Positions 4,972 to 10,440 of a stretch of 64,000 nt of DNA are shown here, piece after piece. A model generated the notes under the pieces. It was given only the letters and a program-made list of their open reading frames with translations, was not told the origin of the DNA and made no database searches. The position numbers and the translations under genes are program-made. The stretch lies in assembly GCF_050920415.1 (NCBI RefSeq), contig NZ_CP169309.1; one strand, 5' to 3'. How positions within the stretch are numbered: position 1 is the stretch's first letter; every line of letters starts with the position of its first letter. Source of the DNA: Escherichia coli (GTDB lineage Bacteria; Pseudomonadota; Gammaproteobacteria; Enterobacterales; Enterobacteriaceae).

Positions 4972-6405
4972 ATGAAAGTAACGCTGCCAGAGTTTGAACG
5001 TGCAGGAGTGATGGTGGTTGGTGATGTGATGCTGGATCGTTACTGGTACGGTCCCACCAGCCGTATCTCGCCGGAAGCGCCGGTGCCCGTGGTTAAAGTG
5101 AATACCATCGAAGAACGTCCGGGCGGCGCGGCTAACGTGGCGATGAATATCGCTTCTCTCGGTGCTAATGCACGCCTGGTCGGGTTGACGGGCATTGACG
5201 ATGCGGCGCGCGCGCTGAGTAAATCTCTGGCCGACGTCAACGTCAAATGCGACTTCGTTTCTGTACCGACGCATCCGACCATCACCAAATTACGGGTACT
5301 TTCCCGCAACCAACAGCTGATCCGTCTGGATTTTGAAGAAGGTTTCGAAGGGGTTGATCCGCAGCCGCTGCACGAGCGGATTAATCAGGCGCTGAGTTCG
5401 ATTGGCGCGCTGGTGCTCTCTGACTACGCGAAAGGTGCGCTGGCAAGCGTGCAGCAGATGATCCAACTGGCGCGTAAAGCGGGCGTTCCGGTGCTGATTG
5501 ATCCAAAAGGCACCGATTTTGAGCGCTACCGCGGCGCTACGCTGTTAACGCCGAATCTCTCGGAATTTGAAGCTGTTGTCGGTAAATGTAAGACCGAAGA
5601 AGAGATTGTTGAGCGCGGAATGAAACTGATTGCCGATTACGAATTCTCGGCTCTGTTGGTGACCCGTTCCGAACAAGGGATGTCGCTGCTGCAACCGGGT
5701 AAAGAGCCGCTGCATATGCCAACCCAGGCGCAGGAAGTGTATGACGTCACCGGTGCGGGCGATACGGTGATTGGTGTGCTGGCAGCAACGCTGGCGGCGG
5801 GTAATTCGCTGGAAGAAGCCTGCTTCTTTGCCAACGCGGCGGCCGGTGTGGTGGTTGGCAAACTGGGAACATCCACGGTTTCGCCGATCGAGCTGGAAAA
5901 TGCAGTACGTGGACGTGCAGATACCGGCTTTGGTGTGATGACCGAAGAGGAACTGAAGCTTGCTGTAGCGGCGGCGCGTAAACGCGGTGAAAAAGTGGTG
6001 ATGACCAATGGCGTCTTCGACATCCTGCACGCCGGGCACGTCTCCTATCTGGCAAATGCCCGCAAACTGGGTGACCGCCTGATTGTCGCTGTGAACAGCG
6101 ATGCCTCCACCAAACGGCTGAAAGGGGATTCCCGCCCCGTTAACCCTCTCGAACAGCGTATGATTGTGCTGGGGGCACTGGAAGCGGTCGACTGGGTGGT
6201 GTCGTTTGAAGAAGACACGCCGCAGCGCTTGATCGCCGGGATCTTGCCAGACCTGCTGGTGAAAGGCGGCGACTATAAACCAGAAGAGATTGCCGGGAGT
6301 AAAGAAGTCTGGGCCAACGGTGGCGAAGTGCTGGTGCTCAACTTCGAAGACGGTTGCTCAACCACTAACATTATCAAGAAGATCCAGCAGGATAAAAAAG
6401 GCTAA
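4972..6405 (+). CDS. hldE: Bifunctional D-glycero-beta-D-manno-heptose-7-phosphate kinase / heptose-1-phosphate adenylyltransferase
   Basis: 477-aa ORF; N-terminal ribokinase-like and C-terminal cytidylyltransferase-like halves; RBS AGGAGACAGG. Confidence 0.95.
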
Positions 6406-6485
6406 CCGGAAAGCGGTTCACAGTTCTCGCGTTGTGCCGGATAGTCCTATTGACGCTGTTGTTTTTTCAACCTAAAGTAAAGGAA

Positions 6486-6627
6486 CAAGGGTAAGGGAGG
6501 ATTTCTCCCCCCTCTGAATGGCCGTTAATAAGCGTGGAAACTTATCAGTAACAGCACAATCAGTATGATGACGAACTTCATCATAACCCTTTCCTTATAC
6601 AAGGCCCCTTCTTCGGGAGGGGCTTTC
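6486..6627 (+). ncRNA. sib: Sib-type antisense sRNA (antitoxin of ibs), copy 1
   Basis: Promoter TTGACG-17 bp-TAAAGT at about 6450-6478; fully overlaps the ibs ORF on the opposite strand; terminator hairpin GCCCCTtcttcgggAGGGGC followed by TTT at about 6604-6626. Confidence 0.55.
6525..6584 (-). CDS. ibs: Ibs-family small hydrophobic toxin (19 aa, MMKFVIILIVLLLISFHAY)
   Basis: 19-codon ORF on minus strand, translated by hand; too short for the ORF track; matches the Ibs toxin pattern MMK-hydrophobic-SF-AY. Confidence 0.7.
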   Translation of the reverse strand: MMKFVIILIVLLLISFHAY

Positions 6628-6861
6628 CCGTTTCAGCCCCTTGCTGATTCCCCGATTGTTGATGAGCGCCAGACCCCGCGCAATGCTTTCCCTGATGCAC
6701 TTTTCTCTTCCCCGAGTCGGCTCGCAAAACGCTGTAACAACCTGATCATTTGTACTTTTTAGCGGAACGCAGATATAAAAAATCCCCGGCTTTTTGGGCC
6801 AGGGATATGTGTTAATGAAACCTTCTTGACGCTGATTTTTTTTCAACCTAAAGTAAAGGAA

Positions 6862-7003
6862 CAAGGGTAAGGGAGGATTTCTCCCCCCTCTGAATTGGTT
6901 GTTAGTAAGTCGGGAAACTTAACAGTAACAACACAATCAGTATGATGACGAACTTCATCATAACCCTTTCCTTATACAAGGCCCCTTCCTCGGGAGGGGC
7001 TTT
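6862..7003 (+). ncRNA. sib: Sib-type antisense sRNA (antitoxin of ibs), copy 2
   Basis: Promoter TTGACG-17 bp-TAAAGT at about 6826-6854; terminator GCCCCTtcctcgggAGGGGC followed by TTT at about 6981-7003. Confidence 0.55.
6902..6961 (-). CDS. ibs: Ibs-family small hydrophobic toxin (19 aa, MMKFVIILIVLLLLSFPTY)
   Basis: 19-codon minus-strand ORF in the second repeat unit, translated by hand. Confidence 0.7.
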   Translation of the reverse strand: MMKFVIILIVLLLLSFPTY

Positions 7004-7199
7004 CCCGTTTCAGCCCCTTGCTGACTCCCCGATTGTTGATGAGCGCCAGACCCCGCGCAATGCTTTCTCTTATGCAGTTTTCTCTTCCCCGAGTCGGCTC
7101 GCAAAACGCTGTAACAACCTGATCATTTGTACTTTTTAGCGGAACACAGATATAAAAAATCCCCGACTTTTTGGGCCAGGGATGTTCATGGTTGAAAAT

Positions 7200-8861
7200 T
7201 TATTCTATGTTTTCTGCTACGGGAGTTGTTGAGGTTAAGGGTGAAGTCAATGCCGCTAGCGAGCCGCCTGAAACACCAATTTCATTGAGCAAGGAGTCAA
7301 TCAGCGGTGCCTGTGTGCGGTAAGAAAGCGCGGCTGATAACGCTTGTTCCGCCAGATTTCCTCCACCAACGCTACCTGATATTGCATCCCCTGCGGTACC
7401 ACCACGGTTCAGACCATCGACCTGAATAATCTTAATACCGTCGATAGACTTCATTGGTTCCACAGATTTCTCAATTACCGCAGGGAGCGCCTGCAACAAT
7501 GCCAGCTTGAATTTAAGGCTGGTTTGCTCGTCAGAAAGTACGTTGATAGCATCGTTCAGCGCACGTTGCGCTTCTGCTTCCGCCAGGCCTTTTTTACGCG
7601 TAGCTTCGGCTAACTCAACGATCGCCGCCGCCTGCATCTCTGCGGCTTCTTTCTCTGCTTTCGCCCGCACGGTCAGTTCAACCGCTTTGGTTTCTGCATC
7701 CTGCGCGGCAGCGATTAGGGCAACTTGTTTAGCACGATCGGCTTCTGCGGTCTGGCGAGTGGTTTCTACGTTTTGCTGGGCGCTTACCGCTTCTGCAAGT
7801 GCAAGGTTGGCACGCGCTTCCGTTTGTGACTGCTGTTCCGATTTGGCGGCAATAGCGATCGATTTCGTCTGGTTGGCGATTTCGGTGACCTGCTGCTGTT
7901 CGATCTCTTTAATGCGAACTTCACGTTCAGCTTCAACTTTTCTGGAACGGACGGCCTGTTCGCGGTCGATTTCCGTTTCCTGAATCTGTCGTTCAGCCAG
8001 AATTCGCGTCTGCTCTGCTTCCCGACGACGCTCGGCCTCAAAAGCCGCAATTTTCGCATTCTGCTCAGCGGTACGGGTTTTAACCTGCTGCTCCTGCTCA
8101 AGCGTCATAAACGCTTCTTGCTGTTCAATCTCCAGCTTCCGCGAAAGCGCATCACGGTTTTTCTCACGCACCGCAACTTCTACATCCTGTTCAACTTCGT
8201 TACGTTCGCGACGACGGCGCTCCGTCTCCTGCGTCAGCTTGGTTAAACCTTCGGCGTCAAAGGCGTTGTTAGGATTGAAATGTTCTTTCGACGTCTGGTT
8301 AAAGTTGGTAAGTGAAACGCTTTCCAGTTCCAGGCCGTTTTTCGACAGATCTTCAGCAACGGTATTTTGTACGCCCTGCACGAAGTTCTCGCGGGTATCC
8401 TGTAACTCATGCATGGTCATTTGTGCAGCTGTTGCACGGAGGGCATCGACAAATTTATCTTCAACCAACATACGTAAGTCTTCAGGCGACAGGGTGCGTT
8501 GCCCCAGCGTCTGGGCGGCGGTGGCAATACCTTCCACTGACGGTTTTACCCGCACAAAGAAAGCGACAACGACATCGACGCGCATACGATCTTTCGTAAT
8601 CAGGCTATCAATGGTTGAGCGGCTGACTTCCAGCTTCAGAGTATTCATATTGATGGGGATTATTTCATGAAAGATCGGCATCACGATTGCGCCACCGCTC
8701 ATTACCACTTTTTGCCCACCTAAACCAGTACGAACAAAAGCTTGCTCTGCCGAAGCGCGACGATAGAGCCTGGCGAAAATAATTCCAATAATTAACAGAA
8801 TGCATACGGCAATAATTGCGGTAAACATCCAGGAGGGCACAGAATTAACAATATCATCCAT
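7200..8861 (-). CDS. yqiK: SPFH / band 7 (flotillin-like) membrane protein with long coiled-coil region
   Basis: 553-aa ORF; N-terminal TM helix, SPFH-like region, Ala/Glu/Gln-rich coiled coil; downstream partner of yqiJ. Confidence 0.9.
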   Translation of the reverse strand: MDDIVNSVPSWMFTAIIAVCILLIIGIIFARLYRRASAEQAFVRTGLGGQKVVMSGGAIVMPIFHEIIPINMNTLKLEVSRSTIDSLITKDRMRVDVVVAFFVRVKPSVEGIATAAQTLGQRTLSPEDLRMLVEDKFVDALRATAAQMTMHELQDTRENFVQGVQNTVAEDLSKNGLELESVSLTNFNQTSKEHFNPNNAFDAEGLTKLTQETERRRRERNEVEQDVEVAVREKNRDALSRKLEIEQQEAFMTLEQEQQVKTRTAEQNAKIAAFEAERRREAEQTRILAERQIQETEIDREQAVRSRKVEAEREVRIKEIEQQQVTEIANQTKSIAIAAKSEQQSQTEARANLALAEAVSAQQNVETTRQTAEADRAKQVALIAAAQDAETKAVELTVRAKAEKEAAEMQAAAIVELAEATRKKGLAEAEAQRALNDAINVLSDEQTSLKFKLALLQALPAVIEKSVEPMKSIDGIKIIQVDGLNRGGTAGDAISGSVGGGNLAEQALSAALSYRTQAPLIDSLLNEIGVSGGSLAALTSPLTSTTPVAENIE

Positions 8862-8887
8862 TATTAAATTTCCTTTTGATTAATAAA

Positions 8888-9517
8888 TTACAGTATTTGG
8901 GGCCAGGGATTTTTTTCCGCCAAATATCGCGTTGCAGAAAGTCGGCAAATAATTAATACTTTGTCTCCTTTAGTGAAAGTTTTTTCTTCTTCAGGTTCCA
9001 GTAGTAAATAATGTATTTGGCCAAATTGATCGGTGAGTTTTCCTTCACAGGGGTTACCTGAAGTGGCCTGATGTCCGGTAATTAATGCCATGCAGCCAAT
9101 ATAATCGTCTTCTGTAATAGCAGTGCTATGATCTCGTGGTAACCAGGGCGCAATTCCTTTACCGGTATAATGCACTGCAATAATCGTTAGCAGTAAACTG
9201 ACAGGAACCACAAACAGATTTGTGAGTGGTGATTGCCAGACCATGATGCAGACCTGCTGTAGCAGGATGCCAATAAGGCCAAAAAAACCAGCATGTAAGC
9301 AGAGAACGACGAGAGCTGGCAATCTTCCAAAATTGAGATAATGAAGTGCCTGGCTAATATGACCTGTGGTTATGGAATCATAATGGTCAAGATGTGCATC
9401 AAGAGCACCGGAAAGCATGTGACCGCAGATAAGTGCAAAAATTTCTAAAAGGCCGATCAAAAGTACAAAAGAAATAGCGAAAAGATAAGGGGTGTTATAG
9501 TCAGCGAATAAACTCAT
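8888..9517 (-). CDS. yqiJ: NfeD-like inner membrane protein
   Basis: 209-aa ORF with multiple hydrophobic helices and C-terminal OB-like part; immediately upstream of yqiK. Confidence 0.85.
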
Positions 9518-9786
9518 ATGTCACTCCAATGTCCATTTAGTGACGCAATATTTATTTTGCGATAATTTCCTTGCTTACATTTATCTTTGTTAATAATAAC
9601 ACATGTTAGAGATGTTCTGAAAGAGAAAGTCTTTTAATGTTGTTTTTTTATTTTTCACTAAAAAGTGTGATCGGGAACAATATATTTACGCACGTTATGT
9701 TTAAAGGCACTACACTGATTGGGGAATACTGAAATCAGAAAAAGCATATGGCCTTAAAAGGTATGCGATAACCGGAGGAGGTGCTT

Positions 9787-9987
9787 ATGGATCATAGTCT
9801 TAATTCTTTAAATAATTTCGATTTCCTGGCGCGTAGTTTTGCCAGAATGCACGCAGAAGGTCGCCCGGTCGATATTCTGGCCGTTACTGGTAACATGGAT
9901 GAAGAACATAGAACCTGGTTTTGCGCACGTTATGCCTGGTATTGCCAACAAATGATGCAAACCAGAGAACTGGAATTAGAACATTGA
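9787..9987 (+). CDS. glgS: Surface composition / glycogen-associated regulator GlgS
   Basis: 66 aa from [10 protein letters not shown] (track ORF has 2 extra codons); RBS GGAGGAGG upstream. Confidence 0.9.
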
Positions 9988-9991
9988 TATT

Positions 9992-10014
9992 ACGGGCCGT
10001 CTGGCCCGTTTTTG
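9992..10014 (+). terminator. Rho-independent terminator after glgS, shared 3' region with convergent ubiK
   Basis: ACGGGCCgtctGGCCCGT followed by TTTTT. Confidence 0.6.
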
Positions 10015-10021
10015 TGGTGCT

Positions 10022-10321
10022 TTATTCTGCTTTATCAACCGGCGGGATAGCCGGAGGAGATTGAAGATCTGCTACCGAATTATTGCGCGCTTCCAGTTCA
10101 CTGATGCGCTGCTCCAGTAATGCCAGTTTCTCACGAGTCCGTAACAGGACTTGCGTCTGTACGTCGAATTCTTCGCGGCTCACCAGATCGAGACGCGTCA
10201 ACTGCGCTTGTAGGGTTTGGCGGATTTTTTTCTCCACATCTTCCCCGAACTCCCTGATTCCTTTAGGCATTGATTCGTGAACCTGGCGAGCGATTTGCTC
10301 AATTTTTTTCGGGTCAATCAT
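10022..10321 (-). CDS. ubiK: Ubiquinone biosynthesis accessory factor UbiK (YqiC), coiled-coil
   Basis: About 99 aa from [14 protein letters not shown] (track ORF has a 20-codon extension); BMFP-type coiled-coil. Confidence 0.8.
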
Positions 10322-10440
10322 TGTAGTTTCCCTGTACTGATAGGTGTTGAGTGCCATTGTAGTGCGATAAGGGTAAGTCATAAACCAGAATTATGTGAAG
10401 CTATGCGTTGCTGCCGCTAATCATTAGCGTTATAGTGAAT

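Follow-up and report, generated by a model that had tools for sequence, protein, structure and literature searches.

The window analysed here is a stretch of 64,000 nucleotides (nt) from Escherichia coli (RefSeq assembly GCF_050920415.1, contig NZ_CP169309.1), and its positions 7200-9517 are the ordinary chromosomal yqiJ-yqiK operon of this species, here in a divergent lineage. According to the list of open reading frames (ORFs), the segment consists of exactly two neighbouring minus-strand ORFs, yqiJ and yqiK. Taken as a whole, our explanation of the operon, its terminator, the cage-type mechanism of its products and a recurrent sequence motif is quite probably correct. Confidence is high for the identity and architecture of YqiJ and YqiK, moderate for the cage geometry, which is drawn by analogy, and low for any specific physiological role. 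The original prediction, made from the sequence alone, described the function of the pair in E. coli as poorly defined, and the literature agrees. The operon, its SPFH/NfeD-type pairing and its place next to sibD/E-ibsD/E are already annotated and published, and the discovery value is accordingly small; what the analysis corrects is the strand, the coordinates and the account of the motif, which comes down to a terminator arm and one chance match.

YqiK (8861..7200, minus strand; 553 amino acids) combines an N-terminal membrane anchor, an SPFH domain, a long helix rich in Ala, Glu and Gln, and a C-terminal Flot domain. It matches the Pfam family Flot (PF15975) in residues 406-530 over the full profile (E=1.3e-40, 138.8 bits with a cut-off of 27) and Band_7/SPFH (PF01145) in residues 39-192 (E=1.9e-7, 31.8 bits with a cut-off of 23.6). 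Residues 200-405 are 47% Ala, Glu and Gln and contain no Pro or Gly, and so the SPFH/band 7 assignment and the long Ala/Glu/Gln-rich coiled coil, both claimed earlier, are borne out. The hydrophobic segment in residues 4-37 (Kyte-Doolittle peak 3.03) counts as the membrane anchor, and the protein is oriented toward the cytoplasm according to published data. Single-sequence searches of the Protein Data Bank (PDB) with YqiK and with YqiJ yielded nothing useful, while a small YqiK family profile matched the SPFH domain of human flotillin-1 (9bq2, 9l3g) at E-values from 8e-8 to about 1e-7. The homologue search listed near-identical sequences only, and the alignment used for the AlphaFold2 (AF2) model of YqiK was assembled from ten sequences of neighbour genes. 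In this low-confidence model, helices are predicted at residues 10-39, 203-348 and 369-441. Foldseek places flotillin-1/2 first (411-465 columns), followed by prohibitin, stomatin and HflK/C, with about 21% identity to flotillin over nearly the whole chain and a poor superposition (root-mean-square deviation of about 80 A, TM of about 0.2); these matches give weak support, since the predicted local distance difference test (pLDDT) score of the model is just 59.6. The score of YqiK against the NCBIfam FloT equivalog model (NF058507) is 88.4 bits, below the cut-off of 700. Judged by sequence, YqiK is a homologue of Bacillus subtilis FloT without equivalog status, and its domain matches class it as a member of the SPFH superfamily and the flotillin family (SPFH2 of Hinderhofer 2009).

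Across E. coli, Shigella and Salmonella, YqiK is 527 to 575 amino acids long, and the differences in length are due entirely to in-frame insertions and deletions (indels) in the helical region. They fall in one zone (window positions 7650-8050, codons ~275-405) between short direct repeats. The variants include zero, one or two copies of AERRREAEQTRIL, one, two or three copies of AEKEA, one or two copies of QNVETTRQTAEADRAK in Salmonella, and deletions of 9 and 26 residues; the lengths of the indels do not come in heptad multiples. Should YqiK assemble into a cage, such indels would alter the height of its wall, and they may tune cage height among strains.

YqiJ (9517..8888, minus strand; 209 amino acids) has three predicted transmembrane helices and then, at its C-terminus, an OB-fold barrel. 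Both of its domains score above the Pfam thresholds, YqiJ_N with E=8e-16 and 58.7 bits (cut-off 23) and YqiJ_OB with E=7.7e-15 and 55.1 bits (cut-off 25.4), which agrees with the definition of the YqiJ family (PF21001 and PF07290). Hydrophobic segments are found at residues 8-39, 63-95 and 96-119, with helices predicted at 6-30, 68-94 and 100-125. The AF2 model, built from a 91-sequence alignment, has a pLDDT of 92.1 and shows three transmembrane helices and a five-stranded C-terminal barrel (strands 143-146, 157-162, 168-174, 186-192 and 197-202). The top three Foldseek matches of this model in the PDB, 3wwv (1510-C of Pyrococcus horikoshii), 2k5h (MTH693) and 2k14 (B. subtilis YuaF), are all C-terminal OB domains of NfeD proteins (E from 1.4e-3 to 2.7e-3, probability 1.00, target TM 0.55-0.78). 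The ClpP-class serine protease domain of long NfeD proteins, such as P. horikoshii PH1510, was not found in the 209 residues of YqiJ, which by its sequence is a short form lacking the protease. Hinderhofer et al. (2009) grouped YuaF and YqiJ as NfeD homologues ('NfeD2') that partner SPFH2 proteins, and reported nuclear magnetic resonance shifts for the YqiJ C-terminus.

Many database entries for E. coli YqiJ are shortened to ~115-145 amino acids. Two clusters of 120 amino acids diverge from the full-length protein just past residue 78, which fits a 1-nt deletion in a T7 run (9281-9287, minus strand, codons 77-80), and one shortened cluster (O145:H28) is present on 573 contigs. In some lineages yqiJ appears to have become a pseudogene repeatedly, with yqiK left intact.

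The spacer between yqiJ and yqiK, which lie on the same strand, is 26 nt long. Within it, a ribosome-binding site AAGGAA can be read from the sequence at 8870..8875 (minus strand), 8 nt before the yqiK ATG. Given this short same-strand gap, the two genes are probably co-transcribed. A candidate sigma-70 promoter, TTCAGA-17-TATTAT with an extended -10 TG, lies upstream of yqiJ at 9593..9621 on the minus strand; it comes from a consensus scan, and is weak evidence because the scan finds 7 promoter-like sites where 4.3 are expected. In strain MFDS1022581, whose DNA is identical over 3.4 kb (100%), RefSeq labels YqiJ as 'OB-fold-containing protein' and YqiK as 'flotillin family protein'; the operon is flanked there by hldE and two Ibs toxin genes on one side and by glgS, ubiK and ribB on the other.

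The pairing extends far beyond E. coli. An exhaustive search found 992 representatives of the YqiJ family at E<=1e-3, and genomic context was fetched for six homologues that are 28-41% identical to the window protein. A Band_7+Flot gene follows the yqiJ homologue on the same strand in all six loci, either directly or past one small ORF, as would be expected from the conserved two-gene operon proposed earlier. A PspA_IM30 gene stands immediately upstream in three of the six, and these neighbourhoods agree with the PspA-associated 'YqiJ/YuaF plus Band-7/flotillin' contexts of Ravi et al. The sequence evidence supports yqiJ-yqiK as a conserved, operon-like and probably functionally coupled pair. 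In one of the loci (L007), the flotillin is 77% identical to YqiK and its YqiJ only 30% identical to the window protein; YqiJ evolves much faster than YqiK.

The three loci with PspA_IM30 show a three-gene PspA_IM30 - YqiJ - flotillin module with gaps of 6-50 nt (L005 19-3033, L009 3278-6431, L010 4331-7424). The pspA gene of E. coli is located elsewhere in the genome, and yqiJK is an abbreviated two-gene form. The L007 locus (8561-9927, minus strand), a metagenomic contig, carries the YqiJ-flotillin pair and a classical NfeD (PF01957)-Band_7 pair within 3 kb; with both pair types on one contig, the two SPFH/OB-fold systems coexist as distinct modules. An anti-phage defence role of yqiJK was considered and rejected, as no PADLOC-DB defence model matched YqiJ or YqiK at E<=0.01.

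Comparison with K-12 shows purifying selection on both genes. The yqiJ genes are 92.2% identical at the nucleotide and 91.9% at the amino acid level (17 amino acid changes), with a ratio of nonsynonymous to synonymous divergence (dN/dS) of 0.17; for yqiK the values are 93.7% and 98.2% (10 changes), with dN/dS of 0.04. The locus is present at >=80% of query length in 5337 of the 5426 complete E. coli genomes. Over positions 6400-9800, identity of >=99% is reached in 2 of 5458 matching RefSeq records (5426 complete genomes), and 5428 records fall in the 90-95% band; over this 3.4-kb segment most E. coli genomes are only 92-94% identical. The flanking core genes are also divergent (95-97% identical to K-12, with dS ~0.17-0.28 throughout), and thus the window represents a generally divergent E. 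coli lineage, not an import specific to this locus. The source strain may belong to a deep or cryptic lineage.

Downstream of yqiK, two tandem sib/ibs type I toxin-antitoxin units occupy positions 6450..7183 as direct repeats (D1 and D2) with a 377-bp period. The Sib RNAs are encoded on the plus strand at 6450-6599 and 6826-6976 (Rfam SIB_RNA, 149 and 144 bits), and the ibs toxin ORFs on the minus strand at 6525-6584 and 6902-6961, with the translations MMKFVIILIVLLLISFHAY and MMKFVIILIVLLLLSFPTY. The outer end of the second repeat copy is an intrinsic terminator of yqiJK (7149..7183, minus strand), identified by a terminator scan and RNA folding, with a 9-bp stem AUCCCUGGC/GUCGGGGAU, a 7-nt loop and the U-tract UUUUUUAUAU. 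Its hairpin (7183..7159) begins 16 nt past the yqiK stop codon and has a centroid energy of -12.7 kcal/mol. A second copy of the terminator lies 377 bp away at the end of repeat copy 1 (6772..6806, minus strand; -15.9 kcal/mol, z-score -2.06), between the two ibs genes and on their coding strand. In both copies the minus-strand form is AUCCCUGGC-CCAAAAA-G(U/C)CGGGGAU, then UUUUUUAUAU. The similarity between the two repeat units stops exactly at the outer edge of the hairpin; therefore the yqiK terminator was copied together with the unit, which left each ibs gene with a terminator upstream of it. The real link between yqiK and sib/ibs is this hairpin, which is the outer edge of the duplicated unit.

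The terminator-bearing 80 nt are found in 5424 of the 5426 complete E. coli genomes, at 9532 places in all. Each genome has them in 1-4 places (median 2), and consequently they belong to the yqiK-sib/ibs locus and not to other sib loci. Genomes differ in how many sib/ibs units they carry: ST131, Nissle 1917 and others align in two pieces and have one annotated ibs gene. In the six distant YqiJ-flotillin loci no SIB RNA was found, and on this ground the idea that sib/ibs and flotillin operons are linked more widely was rejected.

The terminator would insulate the ibs genes from yqiJK transcription. Each ibs gene follows yqiJK on the same strand, with one or two copies of the moderately strong hairpin in between, and read-through upon yqiJK induction may yield ibs-containing transcripts, coupling the flotillin operon to a membrane-depolarising toxin. 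We consider such coupling very unlikely, an estimate that was made jointly for this reading and the separate possibility that indels set the height of a YqiK cage.

The original prediction also noted an 11-mer, GGGCCAGGGAT, recurring at 6796, 7172 and 8902, and took it to tie the 3' region of yqiK to the duplicated ibs/sib unit. The 11-mer does occur exactly three times in the window, at 6796, 7173 and 8900. The copies at 6796 and 7173 occupy the same position in the 377-bp sib/ibs unit and form the 5' arm of the minus-strand terminator; the one that adjoins the yqiK 3' end is that at 7173. The third copy (8900..8910, plus strand) lies outside the repeat, in the last codons of yqiJ and upstream of the yqiK start, where it is antisense to the codons AAT-CCC-TGG-CCC for N-P-W-P (residues 203-206), so that the proposed tie through this site fails. 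No hairpin forms there on either strand, as the complementary arm is missing (z-scores -0.5 and +0.1).

A shuffle test gives an expectation of 0.02 occurrences for a pre-specified 11-mer, but it ignores both the duplication and the choice of the motif after the fact, and the threefold occurrence was rejected as significant. When these are allowed for, the copy at 8900 is at chance level: ten of the 178 11-mers common to both repeat units recur elsewhere in the window (six separate sites), one of them as a 14-mer, and the match at 8900 has a blastn-short E-value of 4.5, beside six other 11-mer matches of equal score. All three copies are also present in K-12, and the site at 8900 is kept there because of coding constraint on the NPWP peptide; this tail of YqiJ is conserved across Enterobacterales. 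The motif is the arm of the yqiK terminator, duplicated once with the sib/ibs unit, plus a coincidental match in yqiJ, and it is unrelated to the function of yqiJK.

The most likely mechanism for YqiJK is taken by analogy from solved relatives. Each of the solved SPFH complexes (HflK/C, QmcA-YbbJ, flotillin, prohibitin) is a large cage around a patch of membrane, and E. coli QmcA-YbbJ is reported by Tan et al. (2024) to consist of 26 SPFH-NfeD heterodimers arranged in a cage that extends into the cytoplasm. The FloA-NfeD complex of Staphylococcus aureus multimerises through its OB domain, which attaches to the start of the flotillin coiled-coil region, and it stabilises unfolded proteins without adenosine triphosphate (ATP). 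The operon itself is probably read, on the minus strand, from a promoter between glgS and yqiJ, and its transcription ends at the terminator past yqiK. YqiK is probably held in the membrane by its single N-terminal hydrophobic anchor, with the SPFH domain, a helical region of ~240 residues and the Flot domain directed toward the cytoplasm, and YqiJ is a membrane protein of three predicted helices whose NfeD-type OB-fold domain probably lies in the cytoplasm. By analogy with the relatives, homo-oligomerisation of YqiK through SPFH domains and parallel helices would form a dome or cage at the cytoplasmic face of the inner membrane, fencing a membrane patch. YqiJ would sit inside this patch, its OB domain binding the base of the YqiK helical region and promoting or stabilising oligomerisation. 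The assembly might serve as an ATP-independent scaffold for membrane stress or protein stabilisation, needed under specific conditions only.

A number of results weigh against this picture. YqiJ has no match to Pfam NfeD (PF01957) even at E<=10, and hhalign of the YqiJ family profile with a PF01957 protein is not significant (E=0.19, probability 0.3). The Foldseek E-values of YqiJ are modest (~1e-3), and OB folds are common. By sequence, the PDB holds no closer match to YqiJ or YqiK than human flotillin-1, and with the low confidence of the YqiK model the cage stands as an analogy rather than a finding. The S. aureus FloA-NfeD complex was described at ~8 A as a clamp-shaped dimer that builds fragile rings, with no closed cage, and the geometry of YqiJK could differ accordingly. 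Finally, published work reports neither a growth nor a stress phenotype for the yqiK deletion or the quadruple SPFH mutant, and expression from the native locus yields hardly any detectable YqiK. Published attempts did not detect native YqiK in detergent-resistant membrane fractions, owing to low expression, and the sole effects suggested in the literature concern motility and ampicillin.

The first of these points bears on the earlier description of YqiJ as NfeD-like. The fold matches and the gene context agree with it, but not the family test, and the 91-sequence YqiJ family profile likewise matched no NfeD chain among PDB sequences. Based on the model, the 'NfeD-like' label holds for YqiJ by fold and gene context, not by Pfam family membership, and the PF01957 test alone would wrongly refute a relationship that is valid at this level.

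Another reading of YqiJK concerns the geometry. In place of a closed cage fencing lipids, YqiJK could form a clamp that holds unfolded membrane proteins independently of ATP, the holdase role put forward for FloA-NfeD of S. aureus. YqiJK shares the gene-pair architecture of that system, an OB-fold membrane protein and a flotillin with SPFH, coiled-coil and C-terminal regions, and besides the binding of the NfeD OB domain to the coiled coil, the S. aureus study reports that the complex stabilises clients and improves survival under oxidative stress. The resolution of those maps is low, however, and the authors themselves ask for validation, while the SPFH structures solved at high resolution, those of E. 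coli QmcA-YbbJ and human flotillin included, all show cages that are closed or can open. E. coli SPFH mutants, the yqiK deletion among them, show no matching phenotype. Moreover, the clamp and cage models are compatible, as a cage could hold clients. We regard the purely clamp-like alternative as unlikely. The lack of a phenotype and the very low native expression, both published, could also mean that yqiJK in E. coli is in decay and retains little or no function today. The widespread yqiJ alleles frameshifted at the T7 run, the many in-frame indels of YqiK and the absence of the upstream PspA partner of other bacteria would fit such decay. Still, the dN/dS values point to strong purifying selection across a deep split (dS ~0.24-0.28), the locus is retained in nearly all complete genomes, and the YqiK indels are all in frame and limited to the helical region, which makes decay of the operon as a whole highly improbable.

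Finally, the three copies of GGGCCAGGGAT might be a functional, related set, for instance sites of protein binding or recombination, or remnants left when the yqiJ 3' end was duplicated, and would then link yqiJK mechanistically to sib/ibs. The 11-mer stands exactly at the outer boundary of each repeat unit, all three copies are kept in K-12 despite ~7% divergence, and a gapped match to the yqiJ site runs slightly longer, TTTGG[G]GCCAGGGAT (family D3). Yet two of the copies follow from the tandem duplication, the third is one of ~7 equal 11-mer matches, and the copy in yqiJ has no complementary arm to pair with. Its conservation is accounted for by NPWP, which is kept even in a 41%-identical homologue whose locus shows no Sib RNA, and the terminator-bearing sequence is confined to this locus. 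We give a functional set of this kind hardly any weight, and retain the reading of a duplicated terminator arm and a coincidental match.

Beyond the operon, the gene order departs from that of K-12 (window 9787-17000): glgS is followed directly by ubiK, by a flavin mononucleotide (FMN) riboswitch with ribB, and then by a fimbrial operon interrupted by IS2, whereas in K-12 ygiL-yqiGHI lie between ubiK and glgS. The fimbrial genes of the window share only 65-77% identity with ygiL and yqiH, and no match to yqiI was found. In the matching genome, an IS200/IS605-type element (ISEc41 tnpA and a gene for the RNA-guided endonuclease TnpB/InsQ) is located between ygiM and ygiF, which places it from upstream of window position 1 to ~700 (L002 620-2290).

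Among known systems, the nearest is that of K-12: its YqiJ (b3050) and YqiK (b3051) are orthologues that agree with the window pair in order, relative strand, length (209 and 553 amino acids) and the 26-nt spacer; the downstream terminator, the sibD/ibsD-sibE/ibsE units and the three motif copies are present there as well. The differences include the last residues of YqiK (AENIE vs EEKAE) and the gene order beyond glgS. The YuaF-FloT (YuaG) pair of B. subtilis and the NfeD-FloA pair of S. aureus likewise encode an NfeD-type OB-fold membrane protein beside a flotillin-type SPFH protein. One of the three best fold matches found with the YqiJ model is the solved soluble domain of YuaF (2k14), and Hinderhofer et al. 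placed YuaF/YqiJ together with YuaG/YqiK in the SPFH2/NfeD2 groups, but sequence similarity to these Firmicutes proteins is low and their phenotypes are not seen in E. coli. QmcA-YbbJ resembles YqiJK in belonging to the same organism, in facing the cytoplasm and in combining an SPFH gene with a small membrane OB-fold protein. Unlike YqiK, QmcA is stomatin-like, shorter and without a Flot domain; YbbJ is a member of Pfam NfeD (PF01957), a family model that finds no match in YqiJ, and the gene order is reversed, qmcA being upstream of ybbJ and yqiJ upstream of yqiK. Human flotillin-1/flotillin-2 (9bq2, 9l3g) differs in being a eukaryotic hetero-oligomer without a transmembrane anchor of the YqiK type and without an NfeD partner, but shares with YqiK the layout of SPFH domain, long helix and C-terminal region, and is its best PDB match both by profile and by Foldseek.

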